Shown: positions 4,166 through 25,789, counted from the stretch's first letter. The stretch is DNA of 64,000 bases from Planctomycetes bacterium TMED75 (GCA_002171655.1 NHEC01000016.1:3656-67655), one strand, 5' to 3'. Program-made: numbers and translations. The notes: generated from the letters alone by a model not told the origin.

Positions 4166-4471
4166 TCAGCCCTTGCTGAACAACTGATTTCGAAGTTGCT
4201 CGACTGCGACCAGGGACCGCTCATCAAGCTCCGCACCCGCCACGGCTTGTTCGAAACAGCCTTGCCCAAGAAGTAATGGCAACGGATCGGTTTCCCCCAG
4301 GCTGTCTGAGAGAGTGCGCAGTAAACGCCTCTGTGAACGGTTGAGGCCCAGTCGTCTGGCAAAACGATCCCGGCGATGCACGACCGGTCGCCAGTACAGA
4401 GTGAGGCCCACCCCGCACATTCCAACAAGGATCAAGCCGATCGAGACAACATTGAGGGGATCAAGACTCAT
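4166..4471 (-). CDS. Small membrane protein, hypothetical
   Basis: One N-terminal TM helix (VVSIGLILVGMCGVGLTLYW). Its start overlaps the stop of the upstream 652-aa gene by 4 nt. Confidence 0.5.
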   Translation of the reverse strand: MSLDPLNVVSIGLILVGMCGVGLTLYWRPVVHRRDRFARRLGLNRSQRRLLRTLSDSLGETDPLPLLLGQGCFEQAVAGAELDERSLVAVEQLRNQLFSKG

Positions 4472-6426
4472 GAGGCTCGTTCTCCAACCTGGGATGCTCG
4501 AAGAGATCGCAGGGCGATTCGACCGGTTTCGTGGAGTTCGACTTCCGATGCCCCTTCAAGAAGTCGAAGGACTCGGGAACTGAACGTGGCTTCACCACTC
4601 AATCGTGCTCCTTCCAGAGCGGCGAGTCGTTCTCGAACGGTCGGGCCGGAGAACAGCGATTCAACCAGAGACATGAATCCCACGGGATCCCGCGAGTGAA
4701 GCGCCCGGAGCGCAACTCGACGGATTCTCGCGTCAGAAGTCCGCGCCAATCGCTCAAGCAGTGCCCGATCGATGACGTGGCAGCCAAGCTTGACGCAGTC
4801 TGACCCACTGAGCGACGTCGCCGCCTCGAGTGCTGACTGCTGAACTGCGGGCGAGGTATCTGCAAGCCCACGAAGGATCGCCCGAGCGGACTCGCTGGAG
4901 GTGCCATGCGCCAAAAGTCGCAGGGCACGACTACGGACTTCGTTGCCGTGCTGGGAGGACTGAACACCGCTGAGATTCAAGAGCTCATTCTCGAATTCCC
5001 GGGCGATTCCTCTTCGGTTGATGATTTCAAGCGCTGACGTGATCGACGAGGCATTTCCCGTCGTCAGTACGCGCCGCAGCATGGATGCAAGCGCATTGGG
5101 CCGGTCGCGATGATGGACGAGAGAACACGCTGCCGCCTGCCCGGGAGTGAGCGAGGCCAGTGCGGCTTCCAGCTGTTGCAGAGTCGGGCGCCATCGAGTC
5201 CCTTCGATGGTGCGAGCACCAGAAGACTCCGACCGATGCAGATCTCGAAGGGCTCTTGATTGTGACTCGGAAGGGGGCATGCGTTGGAGAAACCCACGCG
5301 CCAATGAGTGCGTCAGGGGATCTCCACATGTTCCCAGAAGCCCGAGACGACTGGCAACCAGCTCCCGGTCATCGTGGCAATCAAAAAGAATTCGTGGAGC
5401 CTGGCGAAGGAGTACGGGATCCACCGAGGCGGTCTTGCGCAACAGGCCTGCAAGGCGAGCTGGAACTCGGGAACCGATGAGATGCCTCCGCAAGGTGGGA
5501 GATGCCAACAGGTGCCCACTCTCGGTCAAGATTGCACTGAGTTGCGAGGGGCGTGCGGATTCGAGCGCTTCCAGAGCTGGCTCTCCCAACAAGGGGCATT
5601 CAAGCAGTCGGATCAACTGCTTGCGTATGGCTCCAGACCGGATGGTACGAACCGCCCTTTGCATGAGGGCACGTACCGGAGGCGCAAGGGTCGAGCAGTT
5701 GAGGCCATCCCCCGAATCAAAGGACGGGCTGGAGCAGTCCAGATCCCCGGCACGAAGGAGAACTGCCGACAAGACGGCTTCATCTGGACAGGTATCCAGT
5801 GGCTGCCCCAAAGACGCCTCGAGTGCACGACACAGGTGGACCCGATTTGATCCGAATTGATACTGGAGCTCCAGAGCCTCAAGGAGAAGGCATTTGTGCA
5901 GGATCGGGGCAGCGGAGGGGGTGGTGGCGAGCAGGAGACCCAGCAAGGCGGGCCGATCCGGAGTCGATCGATCAGCCAACACGCAGGCGACTTCCGGAAT
6001 CAGATCATCCGGGCAGTCCGAGAGCACCCGAGCAAGGGTTTCGGCTGAGGCATCGAGTCGTGGGAGCTGCGCCCTTCGAGCCTGGACCTGATCCAGATCA
6101 TCATCCAATCTCAAGGCACCTTTTTGGTCCCTTTGGCGAAGCAGCTGCAACCCCAATGAGATCGCTTTCGAATGGTCAGATCTCAACAACGTTTGGATCA
6201 GTTCCTCGGCCTGAGTCTGGTCCGAATGCCGCAAGGCAGTACGGACCCCAGACTCAACCACTCTCAGCTCAGACGGATGGTCGAGCTCGAAAAGCAAAGA
6301 AACACGATCAGCCGCGCTCCAGGGCTTGGAAGGTGACCGTGAAGAGGAGAAAAAGGGCAGTAATTGCGCAATAAACCGCCTCAAACCGCCATCATGATGT
6401 CTGTCTTGAACTGTGGCCATACGCAT
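4468..6426 (-). CDS. Hypothetical alpha-helical repeat (HEAT/ARM-like) protein
   Basis: A 652-aa Leu/Ala/Arg-rich helical repeat sequence with recurring ...RxRALRALxxx... units. No catalytic motif seen. Confidence 0.55.
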   Translation of the reverse strand: MRMATVQDRHHDGGLRRFIAQLLPFFSSSRSPSKPWSAADRVSLLFELDHPSELRVVESGVRTALRHSDQTQAEELIQTLLRSDHSKAISLGLQLLRQRDQKGALRLDDDLDQVQARRAQLPRLDASAETLARVLSDCPDDLIPEVACVLADRSTPDRPALLGLLLATTPSAAPILHKCLLLEALELQYQFGSNRVHLCRALEASLGQPLDTCPDEAVLSAVLLRAGDLDCSSPSFDSGDGLNCSTLAPPVRALMQRAVRTIRSGAIRKQLIRLLECPLLGEPALEALESARPSQLSAILTESGHLLASPTLRRHLIGSRVPARLAGLLRKTASVDPVLLRQAPRILFDCHDDRELVASRLGLLGTCGDPLTHSLARGFLQRMPPSESQSRALRDLHRSESSGARTIEGTRWRPTLQQLEAALASLTPGQAAACSLVHHRDRPNALASMLRRVLTTGNASSITSALEIINRRGIAREFENELLNLSGVQSSQHGNEVRSRALRLLAHGTSSESARAILRGLADTSPAVQQSALEAATSLSGSDCVKLGCHVIDRALLERLARTSDARIRRVALRALHSRDPVGFMSLVESLFSGPTVRERLAALEGARLSGEATFSSRVLRLLEGASEVELHETGRIALRSLRASQVGERAS

Positions 6427-11557: not shown

Positions 11558-11845
11558 GACATGAGTGTACCGACTGTTGCCCCATGGGTTTGCAGGCAGA
11601 GAAACGGCTTTCTTGGACAGAAGACAGCGATTCCACCAATCTTGATCGAGTTTCAGACGTAGCAATCCGATGAGATTCTGCCTCCATTGCTTGGTTGGGA
11701 GGTAGGCAAAGAAAACGGCCCTTTCGGTGGGCTAGCGTGTATCCTTGGGATCCCCATACGCAGGACCTTGCGAGAGAATTGACTCGATGAAGGGTCCGAC
11801 CTGAGACCGCCTCAGAGAAACGACACTTGGAGCAACAAGAACATC

Positions 11846-13633
11846 ATGGCCCCTACTCATAAGAATTCGTGCGCCACTCCCATTCGCAATGTCCCGATCC
11901 TTGGGAGAGCAGCCCTCATCAGTGCCGCGACCCTGTCGGTTCTTTTCGTGGGCTGCGGTGATTCTGGAACTGACGCCACCAAAGCTGCAGCGAACCCCGA
12001 AGTTTCTGCTCCGGCCCAAACTGATGGCGGCGCGGTGGCAGCGCCCACCGTGGTGGCTGCCACAGATGAGAAGCGTCTGAACGCAACCAATCTGAATGCA
12101 ACCAATCTGAAGACCAAGCCCGTTCCAGCACCCGGTGCCACCGTCGGAGCAACTGCCACCAAGGGAGCTCCTGCCAAGCCAGTCGACCCTTCCAGTGCTT
12201 CACCCATTCGGTTCGAACCAGATCCACTGGATCTTGGTGAAATGACCGCCGACGTCGCCAAGACCGGCACCGTGACCATTGTCAATACCTCGGACGCTCC
12301 GGTGACCATCACCAAGGCAGTACCAGGGTGCGGTTGCACCACCCTTGGCTGGCCAAAGGAACCGATTGCACCCGGGGCTTCTGCGGATATCGACATCACT
12401 CTCAAACCAGGACCCAAGCAGGGCGTCACGCTGCGAAAGCGTGTGACCTTCCAGCTCGATGGCCAGCCCTCCCAGGTTCTTCAGGTTCAGGGCAATGTTG
12501 CTGAATACGTTTCCATTAAGCCGGACATCCTCCCCGCTCGGGTCGAGGAAGAACCCCTCAGCTCGGAAATCGTGCTTGCCTCGGTCGATGGAACACCCTT
12601 CACGATCACCTCCACGAATCCCGATGTGATGTCAGGCCTTGCCACCGAACCCGCACTCGTTCAGACCGTCCAGCTTGACTGGGCTGCTTGGGAAGAAGCG
12701 GGCCGACCGGTGAAGGTGGCGTTCATGCTTGACCACCCCAAGTCAGCGCAGGTGTCCACCCTGGTGAAACGACGATCACTGAATTCCCGGCAACCCAACG
12801 CGCCGACCCCCAGCAACGTGAACAGCCAACAGATCAACGATCTCAGTGGAGCCGCTCGGTCCGGTGACCTGACCCGTGTCAAGCTGCTCATTGCCAATGG
12901 GGCCGATCCCGATTCGCCTGATACCAACGGAGGCCGCACGCCTCTGCACTGGGCGGTTAAGGGAAACCACATGGAAGTTGTCACCTACCTCCTTGAGTCA
13001 GGGGCCGACATCGACAAGGGCGAGCGAGCTGGAAAGACTGCTCTTGACTTCGCAGCAGAGTCCGGCCAGGTTGAAATGACCCAATTCCTGGTCGACGCTG
13101 GAGCCGATGTGAACAAGCGGGACCTCATTGGTGGCAACTCCGCCTTGTGGGCCGCCGGCCTCGGAACGCCTCAGACACTTGAGATTCTCGTGAAGGCCAA
13201 CGCCGACATCGAGGTCAAGGACATCAATGGACTGACTCCGCTTGCCTGGGCCGCGCAAACCGGCGAAACCCAGTCAATGCAGATTCTCATCGATGCTGGC
13301 GCCGACGTGAATGTGGTGGATCTGCTCAACGGAGAAAGCATTCTCATGCGAGCAGCTCGCAGCGGCAAGGTCGAATCAGTCCAGCTTCTGCTCGACAAGA
13401 AGGCCGACACCACCACCAAGACCAAGATGGGTGCAAGCACCCTCCAGATCGCATCCGAATACGGCAATGTGGACATTGTGAAGGTCCTTGTCGAATCAGG
13501 CCTTGACCCCAAGGCCAAGGACGCACGCGGCTGGACTGCACTCGATTACGCAAACAACCGAGTCGATGACTCACGTTTCGCCGTGATTGAATACCTCACT
13601 CCGATGGTTGGCAGTGAGGATTCATCAGACTGA
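11846..13633 (+). CDS. Lipoprotein with a DUF1573 domain and C-terminal ankyrin repeats
   Basis: Lipobox LFVGCG. The DUF1573 signature is DLGEM...TVTIVNTSDAPVTITKAVPGCGCTT. At least 6 ankyrin repeats follow (GRTPLHWAVKGNHMEVVTYLLESGADI...). Confidence 0.8.
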   Translation: MAPTHKNSCATPIRNVPILGRAALISAATLSVLFVGCGDSGTDATKAAANPEVSAPAQTDGGAVAAPTVVAATDEKRLNATNLNATNLKTKPVPAPGATVGATATKGAPAKPVDPSSASPIRFEPDPLDLGEMTADVAKTGTVTIVNTSDAPVTITKAVPGCGCTTLGWPKEPIAPGASADIDITLKPGPKQGVTLRKRVTFQLDGQPSQVLQVQGNVAEYVSIKPDILPARVEEEPLSSEIVLASVDGTPFTITSTNPDVMSGLATEPALVQTVQLDWAAWEEAGRPVKVAFMLDHPKSAQVSTLVKRRSLNSRQPNAPTPSNVNSQQINDLSGAARSGDLTRVKLLIANGADPDSPDTNGGRTPLHWAVKGNHMEVVTYLLESGADIDKGERAGKTALDFAAESGQVEMTQFLVDAGADVNKRDLIGGNSALWAAGLGTPQTLEILVKANADIEVKDINGLTPLAWAAQTGETQSMQILIDAGADVNVVDLLNGESILMRAARSGKVESVQLLLDKKADTTTKTKMGASTLQIASEYGNVDIVKVLVESGLDPKAKDARGWTALDYANNRVDDSRFAVIEYLTPMVGSEDSSD

Positions 13634-15289: not shown

Positions 15290-16153
15290 ATGAAATCCGA
15301 TCCCAATCATGCATTCGTGGTTGAGCGGTGTTCGCACCAAACTCTGCTCGATCATGTGACGGCCATTCACCAGGGCCAGCCCGAGCGATTCACCCTGCCT
15401 TGCGGCTTCCGTGCAGAAGGTGGCCAGAAGAGCCATGCATTGCTTCTCCGGAATGGGGAAACAGTGGCGGTCGGAAGCGCTGCCCAGAATGGGACAGGGG
15501 CCCGATTAATCACCAGCAGGCTTGATCGGATAAAGCCGGATTCAACTGAACTTGCTGCCTTGATTGAAGCACTGGGGGGAGCGGGCGAACTGGTGATCGA
15601 ACAGGCCCTTGAACAGGCGGCACACGAAGCCACGGCACTGCTGTCAGAGCTCTCATTGCACACCAAGTTTCAGCTCACCTTGTATCGATTTGATGTAGAC
15701 TCCGATTCGATTCCCGGTTCTCACAAGTCGATTCGATCCGCCACCGACTCCGACATACCGCTTCTAGCAGAATGGCTGTGCGCATTTGGGACTGAAACCG
15801 GCTACCAGCATCCTAAAAATGACGTCAATTTCGAAGCAATCGCTCAAGGAAACATCAACACCTGCGCCGTTAGGCTTCTGGAAATCAACGGGGCTCCAGT
15901 CGCTCTTGGCCAGAGAGCACGCAGCTCAACGGTCGGACAGAATCGAATCGGATTGATCTTCGTCCCTGAAGAGCATCGGGGACACGGCCATGCCAAGCAG
16001 CTTGTACGGGCTCTGGTGGGTGAAGTACTTTCAGAAGGCGCAATCCCTTGTCTCTTCTCCGACCGGAAGAATCCGATCAGCAATCGCTTGTATTCAGGGC
16101 TCTCGTTCATTGAAAGTGATTCACTTGTCCACCTCGCACCCGAACAGTCCTGA
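15290..16153 (+). CDS. GNAT-family N-acetyltransferase
   Basis: The C-terminal half carries an acetyl-CoA-binding-like motif (HRGHGHAKQLVRALV). Confidence 0.6.
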   Translation: MKSDPNHAFVVERCSHQTLLDHVTAIHQGQPERFTLPCGFRAEGGQKSHALLLRNGETVAVGSAAQNGTGARLITSRLDRIKPDSTELAALIEALGGAGELVIEQALEQAAHEATALLSELSLHTKFQLTLYRFDVDSDSIPGSHKSIRSATDSDIPLLAEWLCAFGTETGYQHPKNDVNFEAIAQGNINTCAVRLLEINGAPVALGQRARSSTVGQNRIGLIFVPEEHRGHGHAKQLVRALVGEVLSEGAIPCLFSDRKNPISNRLYSGLSFIESDSLVHLAPEQS

Positions 16154-16937
16154 GGAATCCTTTCCCGGAAGCCCCACACTTGTCTGGGCCCAACTCATAG
16201 TCGTCCTCACTGCTCCATCACTGGGAGCACTTTGTGGTCTTTGGTTCTGGCCTGGCCCGTTGGGAGCGACTCTGTACGCTCTTTGCAAGCTGATTCTCTA
16301 CGGCATCCCCGTGTACATTTTGATCCGGCAACTCGGATTCGCAGGCTGTGTGTCCTACCCTTTCCAAGGCCTTTTCACTCAAAACGCTGCGATCGGACTG
16401 GTGAGCGGTCTGGTCATCGGCTGCGTGATTTTGCTCCTCTGGGTGCTCGTGCTTGCCGGCCGGGTCAACGTCGCACCGGTACTTGACGCAATGCGTGACA
16501 ATGGCATGACCAATGCTTTGAAGTTCCTCGCATTCGCTGCCTGGCTCTGCCTGGCCAACAGCCTGCTCGAAGAAATCGTCTTTCGCTGGTACGTTGACAC
16601 TCGACTACGAATAATCGGGCTTCCCTTTGCCATCGCAGTACCTGTTTCAGCCTTTGTCTTCACCCTTCACCATGTGATCGTGCTGAGCGCTTTTTTCCAT
16701 TGGCCACTGGTGCTCACAGGCTCATTGGGCGTCTTCGGTGGGGGGGTTCTTTGGTCCCTGCTGCTTCGCTACAGCAAGTCCCTCAGTCCCAGCTGGATCA
16801 GCCATGCCCTGGTTGATGCAGCAATCATGCTGATCGGTTGGTGGGTCCTCAGTGCCGCCCAAGTACCACACCAAGTACCACACCAAGTACCACACCAAGT
16901 ACCACACCAAGTACCACACCAAGTACCACAGGCATGA
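16116..16937 (+). CDS. CPBP-family intramembrane glutamic endopeptidase (CAAX protease-like)
   Basis: EEIVFRWY and a later HH motif sit within a multi-TM protein. The start is uncertain. The track ORF begins at 15990, inside the GNAT gene; in-frame TTG 16110 and GTG 16116 are more plausible. Confidence 0.65.
   Translation: MIHLSTSHPNSPEESFPGSPTLVWAQLIVVLTAPSLGALCGLWFWPGPLGATLYALCKLILYGIPVYILIRQLGFAGCVSYPFQGLFTQNAAIGLVSGLVIGCVILLLWVLVLAGRVNVAPVLDAMRDNGMTNALKFLAFAAWLCLANSLLEEIVFRWYVDTRLRIIGLPFAIAVPVSAFVFTLHHVIVLSAFFHWPLVLTGSLGVFGGGVLWSLLLRYSKSLSPSWISHALVDAAIMLIGWWVLSAAQVPHQVPHQVPHQVPHQVPHQVPQA
16860..16930 (+). repeat. Tandem 12-bp repeat (caagtaccacac), about 5.9 copies
   Basis: Read directly from the sequence. 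It encodes (QVPH)n at the extreme C-terminus of the CPBP protease. Confidence 0.95.
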
Positions 16938-17056: not shown

Positions 17057-18301
17057 ATGACTCGAATATATGTGCAGAAATTTGGTGGTTCATCCCTCGC
17101 AACTCCCGAACGGCTGCAGGAATGTGCAGAAATCACCCATCGGAGGATGGAGGGTGGTGACCAGGTCGTCGTAGTGGTCAGCGCCATGGGATCCACCACC
17201 GAGCAACTCATTTCTCTGGCTCGATCTCTGGGCATTGGTCACGACTCAAGCTCCCACGATCTGCTTCTCGCTTCGGGTGAGCAGATCTCTGCCGCTGCAA
17301 TGTCGCTCGCGCTCTCGCGATACGGGCACGACTCCGTACCACTCTCTGGTGGAGCCGCCGGACTCGTCACCGATGGACGTCCCGGATGTTCGGAGGTGGT
17401 CGAAATCAATCCAGAGCGCGTGAATCATGAACTGAGTCATGGGAGAATTCCTGTGGTGATGGGATTTCAGGGAATGAGTCGCCAGGGCACACTCACTCTT
17501 CTTGGACGTGGCGGATCCGATACCACCGCCGTGGTTCTCGCGGGGGCACTCCAAACCCATCTCAATTCACCACGGTGTGAGATCTATACAGATGTTGACG
17601 GGGTGCACACGTCCGATCCCAAACTGGTGCCGCACACCAGCTTGTTGGCGTCAATCGGCTACAAGCCGATGCACACCCTGTCACGACTGGGAGCGCAGGT
17701 GATGGCCAGCACTGCAGTACACTACGCAGATTGTCTTCAAGTTCCTGTCCGAGTGTGTAATTCGCGTACTCCGGGGAATGGAACGATGATCGAACCTCAA
17801 TACGATTCGTTCGCACCTCAAGGAATCATCGCATGTGCTGTAACCGAGGAACTTAGTCGGATTCAGTTGGACCTACCCCAAGCCTCGCCGGCGTTGATCA
17901 GCGATTTTCTCCACGCCACCTCCGAATCAGAACTCGTTTTCCATCAGCGTGAGTACAACGAATCCGAAGATTCAACCCGGCTTGAATACACCGCATCCCC
18001 ACTGGTGATCGACGACCTCGCCTCCACCATCACACATGAGCTTACTCGTACTCCATCAGAAACCGTCAAAATGACTATTGAACGAAGCCTTGCACGAATT
18101 GCGGTGGTCGGCAACGATCTCACACGGCACTCCTCAACACTCAATCGCTCTCGCAAGTACCTTGGATCCGTTGGAATTGGAACCAAAGCATGGTCACTGG
18201 TGGATGACACCCATTGCACCTTCTTCGTTCGTTCAGAAGATGCACATGAAGCCTTGCGGGCGACGCACAGATCCCTTGACCTTGAATCCACGCCCCAATG
18301 A
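17057..18301 (+). CDS. lysC: Aspartate kinase
   Basis: MTRIYVQKFGGSSLATPERL...VVVVSAMGSTT, with C-terminal ACT-like regions. Confidence 0.9.
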   Translation: MTRIYVQKFGGSSLATPERLQECAEITHRRMEGGDQVVVVVSAMGSTTEQLISLARSLGIGHDSSSHDLLLASGEQISAAAMSLALSRYGHDSVPLSGGAAGLVTDGRPGCSEVVEINPERVNHELSHGRIPVVMGFQGMSRQGTLTLLGRGGSDTTAVVLAGALQTHLNSPRCEIYTDVDGVHTSDPKLVPHTSLLASIGYKPMHTLSRLGAQVMASTAVHYADCLQVPVRVCNSRTPGNGTMIEPQYDSFAPQGIIACAVTEELSRIQLDLPQASPALISDFLHATSESELVFHQREYNESEDSTRLEYTASPLVIDDLASTITHELTRTPSETVKMTIERSLARIAVVGNDLTRHSSTLNRSRKYLGSVGIGTKAWSLVDDTHCTFFVRSEDAHEALRATHRSLDLESTPQ

Positions 18302-18413
18302 CGCCCCCAATGACGCCCTTGCAGCCCACGGGCACCACTGAGCAGGGGTGGATGAGGTGCCCTTCATCGGGTTTGCCACTTGGAATGCCTCGCGCTTTGC
18401 ATAGGATGGAATC

Positions 18414-18965
18414 ATGAAGGATCCACCTTCGACTCAATCCCTGGTTGCAGACGCCCTGTCTGGATCTTCCGATGGATGGTTCGGGGTGGTGGATCGCTTT
18501 TCCCCGCTGATCTGGTCCATTGCCAGATCTTGTGGTCTGAATCAGTCTGATGCCGAGGATGTTGCCCAGACCGTTTTCACCAAGCTGGTCGTGCACATCC
18601 AGAGCATTCGAAACCATGAGTCAATTCCGAGCTGGATAGCAATCACCACCAAGCGAGAAGCGTGGAGAACCAAGGCACTGACCGACCGATTCAAGCCTCA
18701 CTCGGAGCTTCATCTCGAGCCCGCCCCCTCCAAAGAGGATCCGGACCCGCTTGCCCGGCGACAAGATGCTGTTCGGCAAGCGCTTATGAAGGTTCGTCCC
18801 AGATGCCGAGAGCTTTTTACTGCCTTATTTGGCGCTCAGAACGCCAGCTACGAACAAGCAGCCGAGCAACTTGGACTCCAAGGCAACTCCATCGGAGCCA
18901 CTCGAAACCGCTGCCTTCAGGAGCTCATGAGGCATTTGGAGGACCAGGAGATTGATTTTGAATGA
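18414..18965 (+). CDS. ECF-type RNA polymerase sigma factor
   Basis: Region 2 is DAEDVAQTVFTKLV...SWIAITTKREAWR. The region 4 HTH is ASYEQAAEQLGLQGNSIGATRNRCLQEL. Confidence 0.85.
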   Translation: MKDPPSTQSLVADALSGSSDGWFGVVDRFSPLIWSIARSCGLNQSDAEDVAQTVFTKLVVHIQSIRNHESIPSWIAITTKREAWRTKALTDRFKPHSELHLEPAPSKEDPDPLARRQDAVRQALMKVRPRCRELFTALFGAQNASYEQAAEQLGLQGNSIGATRNRCLQELMRHLEDQEIDFE

Positions 18966-19030
18966 TTTACCGCCTTTGAGGTACGGATTTCTCAGATCAC
19001 TGCTCATCATCTATAGAGACGGAGTTCTGC

Positions 19031-19645
19031 ATGCAAAATGACAACACTGAGCTGGCCAGCCTGCTCTCTCTCGCCCTGGAAGGCGGAGACGAGTCAAATC
19101 TTTCAAGAAGTCAGCGGGCGGCACTCAATCGGCTGAAGCAAGTCATTGAAACGATACGCTCCGATACCGCCGACCCTGTTCCGGCAAGGGTTCTGGAGCG
19201 CGCTCGATCACTTGAATCGAGACTTCCTCGACCGGTGAGCTGGCTCGATCGCACCGTCGCGTTCGTCATGAACCCCTTGCTTGACAGTCTCCATCGACCG
19301 GAACCAGGCTTGAGAGGTCACGAACTTCGTCAATGCACATTCGAGACTGAAGGCTATCGCCTCGATCTTGAAATCGCGCAACCTGCAACCGAGCACCCAT
19401 CTGGCGATCAGACAGAGACAGAGACAGAGCTCGAAGTTGAAGTCAGAGGCCAACTCGACAGCGAACAACCCATTGAATTCCCCCTGCGGGTAGCGCTGAT
19501 TCGAAAAGGGAGCGATGCCTCGGTTCTGAACCTGGAGACCACCCAGGATGGTGGTTTCGTCTTCCAGGCTCCCGCAGGTTCGTACGAGCTTGCGTTTGAG
19601 CTCTCCACCGGAAATCAGATGATCGGGAGCATCGAACTTCCGTGA
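19031..19645 (+). CDS. Hypothetical sigma-associated protein (possible atypical anti-sigma)
   Basis: 204 aa with no TM helix and no zinc-finger Cys/His motif. A helical N-terminal half is followed by a beta-rich C-terminal half. Its stop overlaps the GTG start of the CHAT gene. Confidence 0.55.
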   Translation: MQNDNTELASLLSLALEGGDESNLSRSQRAALNRLKQVIETIRSDTADPVPARVLERARSLESRLPRPVSWLDRTVAFVMNPLLDSLHRPEPGLRGHELRQCTFETEGYRLDLEIAQPATEHPSGDQTETETELEVEVRGQLDSEQPIEFPLRVALIRKGSDASVLNLETTQDGGFVFQAPAGSYELAFELSTGNQMIGSIELP

Positions 19646-22476
19646 TCAACTACGAACGACATCCGCAAATACGTCGTTTCCTCGAGGCTTCACAAGAGTC
19701 TCGACACGCGCTGTCACTCCCCAACACAGACGAAGACACCCTCCTCGGAGTGATAGAGGAACTCGAGGTTCTGGTACGGGATGATGCGCAGGCGGCAACG
19801 ATGGTCGCAGGGGAAATTGAATTGATCGCCCCAAAGGCAGGCAGAGGAGCAATGGCTGCCCGGGCACTCCGCACTAGGGCAGCAGCCGAATCATGCCTGG
19901 GTCAATTCAGTGATGCCATCCAAAGTGCTCATCGTGCAAGGGAGTACGCACAGCATGCTGACAATCCGGTGGAGGCGGCGCGGGCATTGATTGCCGCGAT
20001 GCAACCCATGTGCAACACCGGTCGGATGGAAGAAGCAATAAGCCACGGAACGCAGGCACATGACGAGCTGATGTCTCTTGATCAGCCAGAGCTTGCGGCT
20101 CGCGCGAACCTTAATCTTGGAAATATCTTCAAAGCTCAGGGAAAAGCCCCCAAGGCAATTCCGTACCTGCAACAGGTGATCGACCTGCTGCCTTCTGATG
20201 ATCCTATTCTTCCGCACGCCCTCAATGCACTCGGCGAGTGCATGGCTCAGGACCATCAACTCGAGTCTGCCGACCAGGTCTATCTGCGTGCCGAAGGAAT
20301 GCTGCCGGACGGAGGATTCGAATCAGCGGTTGTCACTGGCAACCGAGCCGAACTCGCAGCCCGACAAGCCCGCTATCAAAGTGCCTTGGACCTCTTCAAT
20401 CAATCGATAAAGACCTGTCGCGCTCTTGAAATACGACCGCATCTGTGCCGAATGACAGTGGAACTCGCAGAAGTCCTTGAGTCCTGCGGGCTCTTGCAGG
20501 ATGCAGCGGATCACCTCATGTCCACTCTTCCTGAACTGGAAGAACTTGAGATTGCCGCGGAGCTGGCAACCGCACGCCACGCTCATGGACGAATTCAGAT
20601 AAGGCTTGGAAAGTCCGCCTCCGCAATCGACACTCTGGACCTCGCGCGTCGTGCGTACCACCAGATTGGAAATGATCGCTTCGCAGACAGGGCTCTTCTG
20701 GCATCAGTTGAAGCTTGCATCGAAGAAAATCGTCTTCTGGAGGCCGCGACTCGACTCTCGCTTATCGACCCCGCCGGAGATGACTTGCTCGTGCAGTCAT
20801 TGCGATCGTTCCATCACAGCCTTCTTGCAGAGGCGAACCAAAGTCTCGATGAAGCTCTTGGGCACGTGGAATCCTCACTTCGGATCGCCAGCGAGATCGG
20901 GCTGCGACCCCTTCAGATTGAATCAGGGGCACGTCGTGCACATCTGCTGCTTCGAACAGGCAAGATTGATGATGCAATTTCCGAATCCGTCGAGCTCGTT
21001 CAACGAATCAATCAGATTCGTGGAGATTTCAACAGCCAAAGATTCCGGGCTGCATTCCTGTCCACCAACTTGGTCGCACACCAGACTGCCGTCACTGGGT
21101 TGGTTGCAAAGGGAGGATCGAAGTCACTCGAACAGGCCTTCGAGATTGCCGAACAGGCGAAAAACCGCGGTCTCATCGAACGCCTTCTCCACCAACTTCC
21201 GGAACCGACCCTAAACCCCGAAGCGGGACCGGAAATAGAGCTGATCAAAAGCAAGCTCAACGCACTCTACAAGTCACTTGAACAGGACGGTTTTCGTGAG
21301 CAGCGAACCTCGGCACGTTCCGATCGACAGCACGAAATTGACCAGCTTGAAAAACAGCTTGAATACCTGATCGACTCCACTCTTTTGAGCGCACCGGCCA
21401 TCGACCAGCCACTGAGTTACAGCGAGATCGTTTCTGAACTTCCCGATGACACATCACTGGTGGAATATGTTGCCTGTGGCGAGGAGCTTACTGTCTTCAA
21501 CATCGGTAGGGGGAAGATTGCAGCAACGCGTCTGAACTCCACGGTTTCTGAAATCACCGAATTGGTTGCCCAGCTGCACTTCCAGTGCCGGCGGAGACTC
21601 AGAGGCAACGTCGGTCCGGGGCTTGAAAAAAGCATGCTCCAGTCCACAATCCAGATTCTGCAGCAACTGTATGACCGCCTCTTCCAGCCGATCACCGATC
21701 AAGTCTCTGAATTTCGGCGCCTTGTCGTGGTACCACAAGGTCCGCTGTCGGGAATACCCTTCCATGCACTTCACGACGGCGAGGACTATCTGATTGACCG
21801 CCATGAGGTTTCAGTCTCAGCCAGTGCGGCAATGGCAGTTCGAACCGCCTCCAGCCCCCGCAGTGGAGAAGGCACTCTGGTGGCTACCGTTGGAGACGAG
21901 CTTGCACCTTCAATTGATCAGGAGGGCCTCAGCGTCACGGCGATGCACGCCCACCAGAGACCGACACAGCATGTCCGAGGAGATCAGGCAACGGTCGCAA
22001 GCGTATCCCATGCACTGAAAGGTGTGGAGATCGCACATATTGCCTGCCATGCTCGTTTTATGCCCGGCTCTCCACGATCAAGTGGCCTGCGTCTCCACGA
22101 TCGCTGGTTCACAATCCGTGATGTGCACGAACTCGGTCGGACCCCGACAGTCGTCATTCTTTCCGGATGCGAGACCGGACTGCATTCCGACAATGGCTCT
22201 GATGAACTGCTTGGACTCACACGTGGCTTCGCTTCCGGAGGCACCCGAGCCGTTGTCGCGAGCCTCTGGAGCGTCAACGATCAAGCCTCCACCCGTTTGA
22301 TGTCTGATCTGCATCAGCAATTGGCCGGTCTCCAAAATATTGACAATGGGGCAGTCACACTGCTCCTGAGTAAGTCCCAACGCACACTGCGCTCGACTCA
22401 TCCACACCCCGCTTTCTGGGCACCCTTCTTCTGCTCGGAAGGTATCGCACACCCCTCGTCCACACCTTCCGGGTAA
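19642..22476 (+). CDS. TPR-repeat / CHAT-domain (caspase-fold peptidase) protein
   Basis: The N-terminal ~600 aa are TPR-like helical repeats. The C-terminal CHAT domain contains VVVPQGPLSGIPFHAL, HIACHARF (His) and VILSGCETG (Cys). Confidence 0.85.
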   Translation: MINYERHPQIRRFLEASQESRHALSLPNTDEDTLLGVIEELEVLVRDDAQAATMVAGEIELIAPKAGRGAMAARALRTRAAAESCLGQFSDAIQSAHRAREYAQHADNPVEAARALIAAMQPMCNTGRMEEAISHGTQAHDELMSLDQPELAARANLNLGNIFKAQGKAPKAIPYLQQVIDLLPSDDPILPHALNALGECMAQDHQLESADQVYLRAEGMLPDGGFESAVVTGNRAELAARQARYQSALDLFNQSIKTCRALEIRPHLCRMTVELAEVLESCGLLQDAADHLMSTLPELEELEIAAELATARHAHGRIQIRLGKSASAIDTLDLARRAYHQIGNDRFADRALLASVEACIEENRLLEAATRLSLIDPAGDDLLVQSLRSFHHSLLAEANQSLDEALGHVESSLRIASEIGLRPLQIESGARRAHLLLRTGKIDDAISESVELVQRINQIRGDFNSQRFRAAFLSTNLVAHQTAVTGLVAKGGSKSLEQAFEIAEQAKNRGLIERLLHQLPEPTLNPEAGPEIELIKSKLNALYKSLEQDGFREQRTSARSDRQHEIDQLEKQLEYLIDSTLLSAPAIDQPLSYSEIVSELPDDTSLVEYVACGEELTVFNIGRGKIAATRLNSTVSEITELVAQLHFQCRRRLRGNVGPGLEKSMLQSTIQILQQLYDRLFQPITDQVSEFRRLVVVPQGPLSGIPFHALHDGEDYLIDRHEVSVSASAAMAVRTASSPRSGEGTLVATVGDELAPSIDQEGLSVTAMHAHQRPTQHVRGDQATVASVSHALKGVEIAHIACHARFMPGSPRSSGLRLHDRWFTIRDVHELGRTPTVVILSGCETGLHSDNGSDELLGLTRGFASGGTRAVVASLWSVNDQASTRLMSDLHQQLAGLQNIDNGAVTLLLSKSQRTLRSTHPHPAFWAPFFCSEGIAHPSSTPSG

Positions 22477-22512
22477 GGGCGTCTCTAGAAGACCAAAGAT
22501 GGAGATACCAAG

Positions 22513-24006
22513 ATGAAAAAACAAGTAGCCTGCCTAGCACTCATAGGTGCGATGAGCTATCCCGTGTTTTCAGAAAACGTGCCGGAAGATTTGCTGGTAG
22601 GGGGGTCCTACCTTGTCCAAGCCAATGGACAAGCGGGGATAGACGACTTGATCGTGGCCATCGAGGAACTCACTCCTGAGGGCAGTGAAGTTGCCGCCAC
22701 AGAGCTCATCCCGGGAAGCTTCATCTATCACATCACCTACTTGGAAGTCGATTCATTCATAGGCGACCAGGTGGGCGAGCGAATTGAACTGCTGACCAAC
22801 GGAACCACACTGAACTGGTCCGAGAGCGACTACCTGTTTGGCTACGACGAAGACAGTGAAGGGCAATCTGGAAGTCTCTGGGTCAGTGGGCTCGGTCTTT
22901 CAAGTGCCAATTTCTTGAACCAATACGCGTTCAACCAGTTGGAGCTGAAGAGTGCACACCAACGATCACAGGGAGAAGGAGTGTTGATAGCGGTCATCGA
23001 CACCATGCCTGATACCAGACATCCTGGCCTGAAACCGCTCTTGAAAACGATTGACCTGGTCAACATGGGCTCGGATCCCGGCGATCAACTGACAGGAAAC
23101 CGATTGGATGACGACGGAGATGGACACATCGACGAGGCACTCGGACATGGAACATTTGTCACGGGCCTCATACAGGCCACCGCGCCAAAGGCCGGGGTGA
23201 TGGCCATCGCAGTCCTGAACGATGACGGAATCGGTTCTGCTGCGAACCTCGCTCTCGGAATCATGCTGGCAATTGAAAACGGAGCACACATCATCTCACT
23301 ATCACTTGGTAGTGAGACGGAAAGCCTGGCAGTGTCGAGTGTCTTGGAATATGCCGCGGAATCCGGCGTGACCGTTTTTGCCGCAGTCGGCAATACCGGA
23401 ACCTGGGGATGCCTCTTCCCAGCTCGGCACCCCAAGGTGGTCAGCGTAGGGGCGAATGATCACGCGATGCAGTTGTCACCGGTTTCCAGCTACCACGCTG
23501 AAATGAACATGGTGGCTCCCGGATCTTCAGTAATCATTTACAACGGCGTAGACGACGAACGAATGGTCGTTGGCCCGACCGTCGGAGAACAATACGTGGC
23601 TGGCACCGGAACCAGCTTTTCAACTGCGTTTGCAGCTGGAACTGGCGCATTGATCAGAGCTCAGCTGACGGACCTCGAAAGCAACCAGATGAATCTTGGA
23701 GAGCTTGGAACGAAGATTCGAAAGCGGATGACTCAAGGTCCGAACCACGTGGAGTTCCCAAATGAAAGTGGGCAGACTCGAGCGGTACTGGAAGCCCTGC
23801 AAGCCACCGACTATGCAGACCCAGTACCACAGGACAGTGACGTCAATGGCGACGGTGTGGCGGATGGAGCCGACCTCGCGATGGTCCTTGGACGCTGGGG
23901 AGGATTGTTCAGCTCTGGTGAACTGCATCGAGAGGACATCGAGCGCGACGGAATAGTCGACGGACAGGATCTGGCGCGGCTTCTCGGTGGCTGGGGTTCG
24001 CCGTGA
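22513..24006 (+). CDS. Secreted S8 subtilisin-family serine peptidase with a dockerin-like tail
   Basis: Signal peptide MKKQVACLALIGAMSYPVFS. The catalytic triad sits in AVIDTMPD, GHGTFVTG and GTGTSFSTA. The C-terminus is DVNGDGVADGADLAMVLGRWG...DIERDGIVDGQDLARLLGGWG. Confidence 0.88.
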   Translation: MKKQVACLALIGAMSYPVFSENVPEDLLVGGSYLVQANGQAGIDDLIVAIEELTPEGSEVAATELIPGSFIYHITYLEVDSFIGDQVGERIELLTNGTTLNWSESDYLFGYDEDSEGQSGSLWVSGLGLSSANFLNQYAFNQLELKSAHQRSQGEGVLIAVIDTMPDTRHPGLKPLLKTIDLVNMGSDPGDQLTGNRLDDDGDGHIDEALGHGTFVTGLIQATAPKAGVMAIAVLNDDGIGSAANLALGIMLAIENGAHIISLSLGSETESLAVSSVLEYAAESGVTVFAAVGNTGTWGCLFPARHPKVVSVGANDHAMQLSPVSSYHAEMNMVAPGSSVIIYNGVDDERMVVGPTVGEQYVAGTGTSFSTAFAAGTGALIRAQLTDLESNQMNLGELGTKIRKRMTQGPNHVEFPNESGQTRAVLEALQATDYADPVPQDSDVNGDGVADGADLAMVLGRWGGLFSSGELHREDIERDGIVDGQDLARLLGGWGSP

Positions 24007-24130
24007 TAGGAACTCAGTGAATTCGACAAATCGTCAGATCGCTGCGTTGATCGACAAAGTCAATAGGCGCTGATCAAGAAAGAACGCCCGAGTTGGCTCA
24101 TATGGGCCAACCCGTGAAAAACAACAGCGG

Positions 24131-24409
24131 ATGCGACCAATGAAACCTGAAGACGCAACGAGCAGCGAGGATCGGCTGGAACGGATCGAATCCAGACTCG
24201 AGGAGCTCGGTCGAAAAGACAATGACCCAAGTATCGCGATTATTGCCGCAGGATTCCTGATCGGTGGAGCCCTCATGGTTGGTCAATGTCAGAGACAGAG
24301 CACACCAAGGATGAACGTCGGACTGAGCAACGCAAACTCCGTGCCCTTCAAAGTCCAGCTTGTTGACAAACAATGGAATGCCATCTCGTTCGACGGGACG
24401 AAGGAGTAA
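24131..24409 (+). CDS. Small single-pass membrane protein, hypothetical
   Basis: One TM helix (IAIIAAGFLIGGALMVG). Weak support only. Confidence 0.35.
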   Translation: MRPMKPEDATSSEDRLERIESRLEELGRKDNDPSIAIIAAGFLIGGALMVGQCQRQSTPRMNVGLSNANSVPFKVQLVDKQWNAISFDGTKE

Positions 24410-24643
24410 GGCGCTTGGAGGGCCCCCTCGGGAAGACTCCGTTTAACGTAACACCCATTATGAGACCTAGGGTGGGCTCAAAGGGGGGCTGGCGAGCTGG
24501 GAGGCGTGCATGATGGCCGTGGCCAAAGGCAAGCACGTTCCCTTTCTTTCTCCATGAGTACTGGATCGCCAGCGATGGAAAGTTCATTCGGATCATTGCA
24601 TCTCTCGTTCTTGTGGCAATCGTTGCGATCGCGTCGGCCCTGG

Positions 24644-25789
24644 TCAGAGAGCGCGGGTCCGAGTCTCACCGATCGCCGCCTCGATCGATGCGTCGATCCG
24701 CTTGACTGCGTCGTGCTCCCTGGCCGATGAGAGGTATTCCTTGAGTCGACATGAAACCTTCCGAGTATCAATGCCCGATACCCAGGGCGTCAGTCCCACG
24801 TATTCGCTTGGAATCAGCTCCGGATAGCTGAGTCGATCAGGAAGCCAAGGCAGACAACCGCAGGCGATCGCTTCAACCACCGCGATTCCGAAGAACTCAT
24901 GCCGTGCTGTCGAGGTTACCCAGTCACAACATTGCAGTATTTGCAGGTACTCCGCTCGATTCCGAGGCCCACCGAACCGGTCGAGCACATCAGCATGCTC
25001 CTCCTTGATCAGCTTCATCGCTTTGGGCGCTTCCTTGAACCGTCTACCGAGTATCGTCCACCTGAATTCGATCTCCGGATCCCCTTTGCAGCGTTCGATC
25101 AGACTCTTGAGCTCCTCACAGCCCTTGTCGTGTTCCCAGCGATGCGGCCAGGCGACGCGGACAATTCGACGTCGCCCGCTTTCTTGGTCCGCATAACCAT
25201 CAGGAACCAGGTTATGTAAAGCAGGGGGCGCCCATGCATCTTCCGGAACCGGCGGCCAGACCACATGGCTTCGCTGTTGCAGGCGTTCGATCCAACTGCC
25301 ACCCACGGTCCAGGGTGCCTTTCCGAGCAGGTCTTTCATCGCCTCGATGAACGAAACTCGGTTGTGTTCGCTGTTGAAGAGCACCACGTCCGCTGCTTCA
25401 ATCGATGCGAGATTCGTGAATGCCAGGTGTGCATCACGATCCCGAGTGAGCCCATCAATGTTGTCCGATACCGGATAGGCAGCCTGGTTTTCATGCATGT
25501 AGAGAACATGAGGAAGCGCACGCACCGCCCTGGGGGCACAGGCTCTGAAATCTGAGAGTGAACAGAGGCTTGAGACGAAGACGGCATCCCATCGCTCACC
25601 CCCCTTGACCAAGTCCCCCACCTCTTCTGCAAAGGTCAATGCCGACTGCCGCAAGCACCAACGCACCCCGCCTCCAGGGCGGGTCCGCCATGTCCAGCGA
25701 TGTGCCGAATGCGCCGTCAATGAGTCTGCGACAGACCGGTGGCTGCCCGCATACCAGGGCTCCAGGGCGAGGATGTCCAGTGCTTTCAT
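24644..25789 (-). CDS. DUF3524/GT4 glycosyltransferase, homologue of tRNA-queuosine alpha-mannosyltransferase (GTDC1/QTMAN)
   Basis: [33 protein letters not shown] and [35 protein letters not shown] match blocks of human GTDC1 as I recall them ([53 protein letters not shown]). Confidence 0.85.
   Translation of the reverse strand: [381 protein letters not shown]

Follow-up and report, generated by a model that had tools for sequence, protein, structure and literature searches.

In Planctomycetes bacterium TMED75, an ECF sigma factor gene forms a real four-gene operon with the genes for a predicted soluble anti-sigma factor, a TPR-CHAT protease and a secreted S8 subtilase. The operon spans positions 18,414 to 24,006 of the 64,000-nt stretch of DNA that was analysed, hereafter called the window. 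The best model for this cassette, which we put forward with a little less than even confidence, is a cytoplasmic, CRISPR-independent and protease-gated sigma switch that has the secreted subtilase as its output. Within this model we infer that sigma and anti-sigma bind each other, that and where CHAT cleaves the anti-sigma, that the promoter depends on sigma, and what kind of signal is sensed.

All four genes lie on the + strand, in the order ECF sigma gene (18414-18965, 183 aa, ATG start), anti-sigma candidate gene (19031-19645, 204 aa, ATG start), TPR-CHAT gene (19642-22476, 944 aa, GTG start), and S8 subtilase gene (22513-24006, 497 aa, ATG start). They follow one another with gaps of 65, -4, and 36 nt, the negative value reflecting a 4-nt GTGA in which the stop of the 204-aa gene overlaps the start of the CHAT gene. 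None of the first three products has a TM-like segment, as the best 19-residue Kyte-Doolittle means are 0.73 for sigma, 0.76 for the 204-aa protein, and 1.08 for CHAT. The ORF and domain calls agree with the initial annotation, which had described four tightly packed same-strand genes, their domain content, a soluble small partner, and a locus devoid of a membrane anti-sigma gene.

The initial annotation had also treated the four genes as one module and asked whether their synteny is limited to close relatives. Gene order is conserved far beyond these. Of 58 genome loci that are fully flanked, 47 have the full order of sigma, ~200-aa protein, TPR-CHAT, and S8, and the complete-order loci come from at least five phyla (Planctomycetota, Chloroflexota, Acidobacteriota, Actinomycetota, and beta-proteobacterial MAGs). 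The small gene is located upstream of CHAT in 59/62 genome loci, sigma upstream of the small gene in 57/62, and a same-strand S8 gene directly downstream of CHAT in 63/75. This order is kept at 35% identity, where the flanking genes are different. Since an identical order recurs in dozens of unrelated genomes, a chance arrangement is ruled out. The module occurs widely, in at least 562 species-level genomes. Actinobacterial versions are present as well; the loci L007 and L008 comprise sigma, a small CarboxypepD_reg-like protein, and CHAT, and only L008 has an adjoining S8 gene.

The 183-aa product is a small sigma factor with sigma2 (residues ~26-83, nt 18489-18662) and sigma4 (residues ~118-176, nt 18765-18941) regions only, as is characteristic of the ECF (group IV) type. 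It matches Pfam Sigma70_r2 (1.3e-8), and scores 51.9 bits against TIGR02937 (ECF; cutoff 42.9) over residues 26-173. The sigmas of the module form one family, with E <= 1e-45 to the module HMM compared with >= 1e-15 for other ECFs encoded in the same loci, and the window sigma shares this HMM family with those of the actinobacterial CHAT loci L007, L008, and L069. It also carries the family signature GSIG(P)TRxRC. Two cysteines, C131 and C167, are family-invariant (conservation 0.97 and 1.00 among 67 module sigmas), and this sigma4 pair could supply a second layer of control, by redox or metal.

For the 204-aa protein, the AF2 model (pLDDT 82.7) predicts a helical anti-sigma domain (residues 3-77, nt 19037-19261), a low-confidence linker (residues 78-98, nt 19262-19324), and a CarboxypepD_reg/transthyretin-like beta-sandwich (residues 99-203, nt 19325-19639). 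The helices at 3-17, 26-45, 52-64, and 71-77, the first three with a pLDDT of 77-97, would make up a three-helix bundle plus a fourth helix, which is the class I ASD layout. Despite a pLDDT below 60, the linker is conserved in the small-protein family: it contains D85, S86, G93, R95, and G96, with conservation values of 0.99 for D85, 0.89 for R95, and 0.85 for G93. The window protein itself matched no Pfam or NCBIfam family and gave no significant Pfam anti-sigma match, and a Foldseek search with its model returned generic beta-sandwich matches only. A profile search yielded 295 matches, including full-length relatives of ~200 aa, and the N-terminal consensus E.L.AYA.GEL....A..vE......P..A..V is ASD-like. 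Among 81 members, zf-HC2 was matched by 18 (best 1e-5), RseA_N by 2, and CarboxypepD_reg by 40. In a PDB profile search with the family, anti-sigma factors accounted for 7 of the top 20 matches; these are weak (E 0.03-0.7) and include RskA (0.033), RseA (0.035), RslA (0.12), ChrR, and MucA. Of 68 orthologues, 13 retain the canonical HxxxCxxC; they belong to Chloroflexota and Acidobacteriota modules. This zinc-binding motif was not found in the window protein, which therefore would be a non-zinc ASD. The family-level profiles and the predicted fold together make a soluble class-I anti-sigma factor the most likely identity of the 204-aa protein. The initial annotation had described it only as a soluble small partner, which calls for revision. 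P0220, the only relative in which the small protein seems to be fused to TPR-CHAT, looks like a frameshift artefact and therefore lends no Rosetta-stone support.

The 944-aa protein starts with a TPR/helical superhelix (residues ~32-507, nt 19735-21162) and ends with a CHAT caspase-fold domain (residues ~604-933, nt 21451-22440). Pfam (TPR_12, 9.8e-14; CHAT, 1.1e-48 over residues 672-932), the AF2 model (pLDDT 87.2, pTM 0.84), and Foldseek all recover this architecture, and the best Foldseek matches of the model are separase (5e-15), craspase TPR-CHAT/Csx29 (1e-14), and DdvA (3e-12). The His/Cys dyad is intact, as initially annotated, with H803 in HIACHARF (residues 799-806, nt 22036-22059) and C843 in SGCETG (residues 841-846, nt 22162-22179). 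An alignment of 32 full-length homologues, with identities as low as 25%, shows no variation at H799, H803, and C843, and neither does a second one of 17 sequences, some of them actinobacterial. Invariance of the dyad in at least 32 homologues from several phyla argues that catalysis is under selection. CHAT may cleave the 204-aa protein or sequester it, both of which the initial wording allowed. If it were sequestration, the TPR or CHAT part would bind the sandwich or the linker of the anti-sigma and act as an anti-anti-sigma, while the dyad would serve autoprocessing or another substrate. TPR arrays are protein-binding scaffolds, and the additional domain of the anti-sigma, conserved and cytoplasmic, has no obvious role; both would suit such partner switching. 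The invariant dyad speaks against it, however, and we know of no CHAT protein that acts by non-catalytic sequestration of an anti-sigma. We regard this non-catalytic mode as quite unlikely and keep to a proteolytic CHAT.

The intergenic region between sigma and anti-sigma genes contains a bipartite promoter-like sequence, GTACG-N17-CTCATC (18981-19008), composed of a -35-like part (GTACG, 18981-18985) and a -10-like part (CTCATC, 19003-19008). A Shine-Dalgarno-like GGAG (19021-24) lies ahead of the ATG at 19031. The promoter-like sequence is the single exact match within 64 kb, and its 17-nt spacing is kept exactly, with variable spacer sequence, in six loci (L001, L003, L004, L009, L010, L089). 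The family-wide motif (C/T)GTAT(C/T)-N16-18-CTC(T/A) occurs 5.43 times per kb in this intergenic region and 0.12-0.15 times elsewhere, i.e. it is enriched about 40-fold. Upstream of sigma, the strict motif was found in 0/61 cases and a loose form in 2/61. Some relatives have extra copies ahead of genes that include a second S8 and those for secreted FG-GAP/dockerin proteins. Because of the enrichment, and since the motif variants track the sigma tree, transcription of anti-sigma, CHAT, and S8 from this motif is probably sigma-driven. The AAC core that is typical of many ECF -35 elements is missing from it, and a different factor might bind there instead.

A promoter in this position could also belong to an ordinary sigma/anti-sigma pair with some other input (such as general ClpXP or Lon proteolysis, or redox via the sigma4 cysteines), in which CHAT is not the gate. 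TPR-CHAT and S8 would then be members of the regulon, a pair of output proteases with different substrates, in processes such as cellular remodelling, developmental proteolysis, or cell death. With the motif upstream of them, anti-sigma, CHAT, and S8 all look like targets, another input is hinted at by the invariant cysteine pair in sigma4, and it has been cautioned that conserved neighbours may be regulators or targets (PMC7826278). On the other hand, the small gene and CHAT are closely tied, as 38/72 loci allow a 4-nt overlap and 67/72 have a gap of no more than 30 nt. This start/stop coupling, together with co-occurrence in 59/62 loci, suggests a stoichiometric anti-sigma/CHAT partnership rather than a generic target. 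Moreover, CHAT is on the input side in both TPR-CHAT/sigma systems that have been solved or tested (PMC10028731, PMC11506125). We consider the ordinary pair unlikely, albeit a serious contender, and retain CHAT as the gate.

The 497-aa protein has a signal-like N-terminus (residues 1-20, beginning MKKQVACLALIGAMSYPVFS), a putative pro-region (residues 21-153) assigned by eye from the sequence, an S8 catalytic domain (residues 154-393), and a dockerin-like tail (residues 443-490). Peptidase_S8 (5.8e-31, residues 154-393) and Dockerin_1 (24.3 bits, cutoff 22.9, residues 443-490) were matched, in keeping with the initial assignment of an S8 protease with signal peptide and dockerin-like tail. With D163 in VIDT, H212 in GHGT, S368 in GTSFS, and a predicted export signal, it has the features of a secreted S8 subtilase. 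Of 70 S8 orthologues, 65 begin with a signal-like hydrophobic stretch. Across loci, the S8 start is often coupled to the CHAT stop. The earlier proposal that S8 is the output fits the internal sigma-type promoter and this tight downstream gene coupling. Translational coupling of an exported subtilase to a cytoplasmic protease is an observation that counts against the switch model.

The neighbourhood as such is already known from sigma-factor surveys as ECF54. This actinobacterial group is reportedly covered by Huang et al. 2015 and Casas-Pastor et al. 2021, and its planctomycetal sister group, ECF58, is said to go back to Jogler et al. 2012. For ECF54, a context of "carboxypeptidase, subtilase and CHAT domains" has been described and proteolysis proposed as control (PMC8999054), so that the CHAT neighbours of ECF groups mentioned in the initial annotation do appear in such a survey. 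ECF54 and ECF58 adjoin in the ECF tree and are listed among the few ECF groups without a known regulator (PMC7826278). Our search of the literature found no experimental study of any member of an ECF54/ECF58-type module. The window module is likened to these groups by context and sigma family; the common context with ECF54 consists of a CarboxypepD_reg-like small protein (at the family level, 40/81), CHAT, and S8. In contrast to these groups, which are called anti-sigma-less in the literature, the window module has an anti-sigma candidate, and the "carboxypeptidase" neighbour of the ECF54 type is read here as a cryptic (Z)ASD anti-sigma. In addition, ECF54 is known from Actinobacteria, whereas the window stems from Planctomycetota. 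The planctomycetal and chloroflexal modules have the sigma-type promoter between sigma and anti-sigma genes; in the actinobacterial loci there is no such intergenic region, as the genes overlap or abut, a point against the switch model.

The view expressed initially, that no mechanistic description exists for such systems, is outdated. In type III-E craspase (Cas7-11/gRAMP, Csx29, Csx30, Csx31, CASP-sigma/RpoE), it has been shown experimentally that Csx29, a TPR-CHAT protein, cleaves Csx30 and thereby relieves inhibition of the ECF-like CASP-sigma (PMC10028731). The likeness lies in TPR-CHAT and a soluble sigma inhibitor. Beyond the fold match, the active-site sequence of the window CHAT matches that of Csx29 (about 2e-5), but its score against the Csx29 NCBIfam model is 33 bits, with a cutoff of 300. 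Cas7-11, a CRISPR array, and homologues of Csx30 or Csx31 are all missing from the window. Activation cannot be RNA-guided. The inhibitor in the window module is a predicted classical ASD protein, and the output of the module would be a secreted subtilase. In DdvA of Myxococcus xanthus an anti-sigma is fused to TPR-CHAT, and the DdvA-DdvS structure has been solved; dyad mutants of DdvA have no phenotype without signal, and autoproteolysis is hypothesised only (PMC11506125). As DdvA is the closest fused analogue, this speaks against the switch model. Both systems pair an anti-sigma domain and TPR-CHAT with an ECF sigma, and DdvA has the highest TM-score to the window CHAT model (0.43; 8rw5, 8rot). 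DdvA, however, is one polypeptide with cytoplasmic ZASD, TM helix, and periplasmic CHAT, is a dimer, and lacks three active-site helices, whereas the window has ASD and TPR-CHAT as separate predicted cytoplasmic proteins with no TM segment and is thus not of the DdvA type. Furthermore, DdvA controls a CBASS/CRISPR island, and the downstream gene of the window module is S8. Eukaryotic separase (separase-securin), the best fold match, has a TPR/helical superhelix and a CHAT caspase fold in common with the window protein, but sequence identity is only ~12% and its biology, cohesin cleavage, is unrelated. Signal-activated anti-sigma proteolysis also frees an ECF sigma in CalpL-CalpT-CalpS (type III CRISPR) and RseA/DegS/RseP. 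These pathways employ protease families other than CHAT (Lon-SAVED; S1 and S2P membrane proteases) and respond to other inputs (cyclic oligoadenylate; envelope stress).

All experimentally studied protease/anti-sigma/ECF triads with CHAT or Lon-SAVED are linked to defence. By analogy with craspase, CalpL/T/S, and DdvA-DdvS, the module could be of an anti-phage or abortive-infection type, in which an invader cue activates CHAT and sigma turns on defence or suicide. Paralogous modules, which are found in pairs in several MAGs (L013/L023, L012/L026, L024/L030, and a tandem pair in L061), would be compatible with this idea. Against it, PADLOC-DB v2 gave no system match: there was a hit to a generic subtilase model (3.9e-16) and a marginal one to BovA (0.0028), and sigma and the small protein did not match any model. 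No CRISPR-like tandem arrays were found in the window, in line with the initial statement that a CRISPR partner is missing. The flanks are of the housekeeping kind (Asp kinase, Fur, TsaE, KdtA, dnaG-rpoD), relatives carry the module in the same chromosomal neighbourhood, and a search of 2.9 M viral contigs revealed no relatives. What the modules have in common as output is a secreted pre-pro-subtilase rather than a nuclease or toxin. A defence function, and with it the conflict or abortive module that the initial annotation had named as an alternative, found no support in PADLOC, flanks, or viral contigs, and we deem it very improbable.

In the proteolytic switch that we prefer, the 204-aa anti-sigma would keep the 183-aa ECF sigma inactive, and TPR-CHAT, a putative separase/craspase-type caspase-fold protease, would be made in step with the anti-sigma via translational coupling. 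A cue sensed via the ~500-residue TPR superhelix would activate TPR-CHAT, which would then cut the anti-sigma; the most plausible place is its conserved disordered linker (...FDS(R)..A.AG.R95-G96...). Degradation of the anti-sigma fragments would free sigma to use the promoter between its own gene and the anti-sigma gene. Firing of this promoter would raise the anti-sigma, providing negative feedback and a reset, along with CHAT and the co-transcribed pre-pro-subtilase, and the exported subtilase would be the physiological output. In some relatives, more secreted proteins are encoded behind the additional motif copies. A more far-reaching proposal, which we rate as less likely than not, is that a stand-alone TPR-CHAT senses an intracellular cue and cleaves a soluble anti-sigma not recognised before, that the freed sigma acts on the intergenic promoter, and that such CRISPR-independent, wholly cytoplasmic modules were the stock from which the craspase (Csx29/Csx30/CASP-sigma) and DdvA defence regulators arose.

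Should the small protein prove to be the anti-sigma, with TPR-CHAT as its protease, direct tests would become possible of how an entire class of sigma factors is regulated, a class occurring in several hundred species of at least five phyla including the ECF-rich Planctomycetota. Experiments could start from the predicted promoter (GTACG/GTATC-N17-CTCxx), from the candidate linker for cleavage, or from the secreted subtilase, and the sigma/promoter variants of the module may serve as orthogonal parts in synthetic circuits. Proteolytic gating of transcription by the CHAT caspase fold, so far known only from CRISPR-linked defence (craspase) and proposed for DdvA, would then be a general bacterial signalling device.

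The cassette comprises four genes on the plus strand. The first encodes an ECF sigma factor of 183 aa (18414-18965) with a Sigma70_r2 domain in Pfam and a TIGR02937 match above its cutoff in NCBIfam, the second a small protein of 204 aa (19031-19645) without a Pfam or NCBIfam family, the third a TPR-CHAT protein of 944 aa with a GTG start (19642-22476; Pfam CHAT, 1.1e-48), and the fourth an S8 subtilase of 497 aa (22513-24006) with a Pfam Dockerin_1 match barely over threshold. Intergenic gaps amount to 65 nt and 36 nt, and a 4-nt GTGA overlap joins the 204-aa gene to the CHAT gene. All four ORF coordinates, strand, gaps and overlap in the initial annotation were reproduced exactly, and its domain calls (ECF sigma, TPR-CHAT, S8, dockerin-like) match the Pfam and NCBIfam results. 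No TM-like segment was found in the sigma factor, the 204-aa protein or the CHAT protein. The window sequence is identical to the marine MAG 'Planctomycetes bacterium TMED75'.

The four genes form a real, conserved unit. The initial annotation had regarded its reading as refuted if synteny were limited to close relatives; the order is kept at 35% identity and in several phyla. A locus with a small-protein homologue of 35% identity shows the order sigma, 198-aa protein, CHAT (with a 4-nt overlap), S8, S8 between different flanks, and the same gene order surrounds full-length CHAT homologues of 44-30% identity. Actinobacterial loci carry sigma, a 161- or 170-aa protein and CHAT, with S8 adjoining in one of them (L008). 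With each GTDB species represented by one genome, a scan yielded 562 CHAT relatives, and in their 80 best loci we compared stop-to-stop ORFs with HMMs built from our own alignments. Within these 80 loci, CHAT is directly preceded by the small gene in 59 of the 62 with enough flank, a module-type sigma gene lies upstream of the small gene in 57/62, a same-strand S8 gene directly 3' of CHAT in 63/75, and the full order sigma, small protein, CHAT, S8 is present in 47/58. The loci belong to Planctomycetota (Phycisphaerae, Isosphaeraceae, Planctomycetaceae, Ca. Kuenenia), Chloroflexota, Acidobacteriota, Acidimicrobiales and beta-proteobacterial MAGs. At the junction of the small gene and CHAT a 4-nt overlap is possible in 38 of 72 cases and the distance is ≤ 30 nt in 67 of 72; an overlap of the S8 start with the CHAT stop is likewise common. 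Several MAGs hold two paralogous modules each (L013/L023, L012/L026, L024/L030, L038/L053), and a further locus has a tandem module pair (L061, 2641-12756).

Several loci have peculiarities of their own. The cassette lies downstream of the aspartate kinase gene in the window (17057-18301) and in the related locus L089, whereas in L003 it is located upstream of that gene (11633-13006), between the Rce1-like gene and the Asp kinase gene; the whole four-gene block is thus locally rearranged between the window/L089 and L003. The public gene call at L003 4604-5353, a 249-aa minus-strand ORF without a Pfam match, masks the true sigma gene (185 aa, plus strand, 4790-5347), which was missed by the gene caller, and the sigma gene of L089 was called but has no recorded Pfam match. 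Annotation-based surveys can therefore miss the module sigma. In L005 (8526-14259) S8 is split into two ORFs of 213 and 291 aa with IS110- and IS3-type transposase genes directly downstream, and this module looks as if it were decaying. A second, unrelated ECF sigma factor, paired with a giant VIT/VWA-domain protein, adjoins the module in L004 (10604-14850) and L006 (1-2294), and a similar minus-strand sigma match lies beside it in L027, L045, L048 and L072; the window does not contain the second sigma and VIT/VWA pair.

The initial annotation had also considered a conflict or abortive-type module. This reading finds no support, since no PADLOC system matched, the window holds no CRISPR-like array, and no relatives occur among 2.9 million viral contigs. 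Moreover, the cassette sits in a stable chromosomal neighbourhood flanked by housekeeping genes: upstream lie genes for an M32 carboxypeptidase, a GNAT protein, an Rce1-like protein and aspartate kinase, and downstream those for a glycosyltransferase, Fur, TsaE, a ThiL-like protein and KdtA, with dnaG-rpoD farther on. The Rce1-like ORF (CAAX protease family, 15990-16937) has at its 3' end a perfect 12-nt tandem repeat, CCAAGTACCACA (16859-16930, 6 copies, 100% matches). Elsewhere in the window, a 652-aa minus-strand ORF (4468-6426) lacks a Pfam family at E ≤ 1e-4.

The small protein has 13 relatives by word-indexed search and 295 by profile search of 1.84 billion representatives. Many of the 295 matches are end-to-end with proteins of 200-220 aa; others are confined to the C-terminal third and fall in large multi-repeat proteins. 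An alignment of 81 sequences gave the N-terminal consensus 'E.L.AYA.GEL....A..vE......P..A..V', which we read as the opening typical of class I anti-sigma domains. A Pfam scan of these 81 members returned CarboxypepD_reg in 40, zf-HC2 in 18 (best 1e-5) and RseA_N in 2. Profile matches of the N-terminal part to PDB sequences are weak but very consistent, with RskA (0.033), RseA (0.035) and RslA (0.12) as well as ChrR, MucA and another RseA_N; anti-sigma factors make up 7 of the top 20 PDB matches. The C-terminal part matches the transthyretin-like domains of NOMO (4e-9). The canonical HxxxCxxC zinc motif survives in 13/68 module orthologues, which come from Chloroflexota, Acidobacteriota and unassigned MAGs. 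In the AlphaFold2 model based on the 81-sequence alignment (pLDDT 82.7), helices at residues 3-17, 26-45, 52-64 and 71-77 and a confident beta-sandwich at 99-203 are predicted. The low-confidence stretch 66-98 (< 50 at 89-95) holds some of the most conserved residues of the family, among them D85 (0.99), S86 (0.81), G93 (0.85), R95 (0.89) and G96 (0.75). A Foldseek search of the model against the PDB gave only generic Ig-like beta-sandwich matches, none at E ≤ 0.001, and was uninformative for the helical N-terminus. From profiles and model we infer that the 204-aa protein belongs to the class-I-type anti-sigma factors, is cytoplasmic and non-zinc, and carries an additional beta-sandwich domain as well as a flexible linker that contains a conserved linear motif. 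The 'carboxypeptidase' that the ECF54 literature lists as a neighbour is almost certainly this protein. A metagenome protein of 1149 aa (P0220), in which the small-protein N-terminal part is joined to TPR-CHAT, was rejected as a Rosetta-stone fusion; its Arg-rich junction, typical of the out-of-frame translation of GC-rich sequence, is followed by a normal CHAT N-terminus, and we regard the protein as a probable artefact of frameshift or assembly.

The AlphaFold2 model of the CHAT protein (pLDDT 87.2, pTM 0.84) has about 13 helical hairpins at residues 32-507 and an alpha/beta domain at 604-933, with a partly disordered insert of helices between them. Fold comparison against the PDB ranks human separase (5e-15) first, followed by the craspase TPR-CHAT protein Csx29 (~1e-14) and the anti-sigma factor DdvA (3e-12); DdvA has the highest query TM-score (0.43). 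At the sequence level none of the three is closely related to the CHAT protein: the NCBIfam score for Csx29 is 33 bits versus a cutoff of 300, and PDB profile matches to Csx29 (~2e-5) are found only around the active site. The motifs HIACHARF and SGCETG occupy residues 799-806 and 841-846, and H799, H803 and C843 do not vary among 17 diverse homologues or among 32 full-length ones. The initial annotation put forward a protease-gated ECF switch in which the CHAT protein cleaves or sequesters the small partner; in our reading it would cleave the putative anti-sigma factor, and a rival to cleavage is non-catalytic sequestration.

The module sigma factors are one family, with E ≤ 1e-45 against their own module HMM versus ≥ 1e-15 for other ECF sigma factors at the same loci. 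Common to the family is the -35-recognition-helix signature GSIGPTRxRC. Placed within it are two sigma4 cysteines that are near-invariant among 67 module sigma factors from at least five phyla, C131 (18804-18806, 0.97) and C167 (18912-18914, 1.00); the pair may have a redox or metal function.

Upstream of the sigma genes, a de novo bipartite k-mer search of 61 regions revealed no shared motif, only GC-rich noise at shuffle level. In the window, a terminator-like hairpin in the gap between Asp kinase and sigma (18330-18362) was discarded, as it folds no better than shuffles (z = 0.46); a consensus promoter and terminator scan of 17900-24700 stayed at chance level, and no Rfam RNA element matched in 17800-24700 at E ≤ 1. 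The intergenic region between the sigma and anti-sigma genes, compared between the window and its relatives, contains two conserved blocks at a fixed distance of 17 nt with an unconserved spacer. In 64 such regions the consensus of the element is (C/T)GTAT(C/T)-N16-18-CTC(T/A). GTATC is present in 35 of the 64 and the GTATC...CTC pair in 23, versus a shuffle maximum of 9. The loose pattern reaches 5.43 per kb here, compared with 0.12-0.15 per kb elsewhere in the loci, whichever the strand, and 0.12 upstream of sigma; the strict pattern reaches 2.47 per kb versus 0.04 and 0.016 per kb. An autoregulatory promoter before sigma was rejected, as the GTAT motif occurs in 2/61 upstream regions in its loose form and in 0/61 in its strict form. 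The window-clade variant GTACG-N17-CTCATC (18981-19008) is the only exact match in 64 kb. In actinobacterial loci the sigma and small genes overlap or abut, leaving no such region between them.

The motif lies 20-45 nt before the anti-sigma start, and on a neighbour-joining sigma tree its variants fall into clades (GTACG...CTCAT; GTATC...CACAT; GTATC...CACTCC; GTAT(C/T)...CTCT). Paralogous modules of one MAG have different -10-like variants, CTCT versus CACAT (L013/L023, L012/L026, L024/L030), as would be expected if the modules were insulated from each other. Fixed spacing, position and covariation with sigma would be expected of a cognate ECF promoter, and they suggest that the sigma factor drives anti-sigma, CHAT and S8, and not (only) itself. 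Extra copies of GTAT(C/T)-N17-CTCT occur 3' of S8 in L014 (6355), L030 (9162), L039 (9100), L059 (10357), L076 (10042), L040 (7184), L026 (7283) and L029 (9164 and 10238). The genes behind them, encoding FG-GAP/dockerin proteins that bear a signal, another S8, a porin-like and a DUF5666 protein, and GT28-like glycosyltransferases, are candidates for further regulon members. Another rival reading is that CHAT and S8 are no more than regulon members.

The catalytic motifs of the S8 protein are intact, and a signal-like N-terminus is found on the window protein and likewise in 65/70 orthologues. In many of them the signal is followed by 'IV.L.PG'-type segments, presumably a subtilase pro-region. 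The dockerin-like tail is lineage-specific; the HMM covers this tail in S8 proteins of planctomycetal origin and not in those from Chloroflexota. We therefore take S8 to be an exported pre-pro-subtilase and the module's constant output.

We propose that the soluble anti-sigma factor sequesters sigma. Upon a cytoplasmic cue sensed by the TPR array, TPR-CHAT would cleave the anti-sigma factor, probably in the conserved flexible linker. Sigma would then fire the internal promoter, which would raise the levels of anti-sigma (a reset) and of CHAT and yield the secreted subtilase. Supported by the conserved module, the intact dyad and the internal promoter-like motif, this switch model of the initial annotation is the best, though hypothetical, reading, with cleavage as its presumed step. 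In the craspase system, Csx29 cleaves Csx30 and thereby relieves the inhibition of the ECF-like CASP-sigma (PMC10028731). In contrast, the window module is CRISPR-free and fully cytoplasmic, has separate genes for the putative anti-sigma factor and the protease, and is coupled to a secreted subtilase. DdvA, which controls DdvS, combines a ZASD, a TM helix and a periplasmic TPR-CHAT in one protein, and its autoproteolysis has been proposed, not shown (PMC11506125); in the window the putative anti-sigma factor and the protease are encoded by separate genes, cytoplasmic and coupled to a secreted subtilase.

The gene context of the cassette (carboxypeptidase-like protein, CHAT, subtilase) matches that described for ECF54 (PMC8999054); the window sigma may belong to ECF54, to ECF58 or to a new group. 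The module neighbourhood is already in the ECF literature, and the window holds a planctomycetal member of the kind noted in ECF surveys; our literature search found no experimental papers on stand-alone sigma/anti-sigma/TPR-CHAT modules. The analysis adds a probable identity for the small partner, a cryptic anti-sigma factor, together with the predicted internal sigma-type promoter and its covariation with sigma, the breadth of the module's distribution, and a link by fold to separase, craspase and DdvA. While the module itself will not surprise ECF specialists, it makes the regulation of ECF54/58-type sigma factors directly testable.
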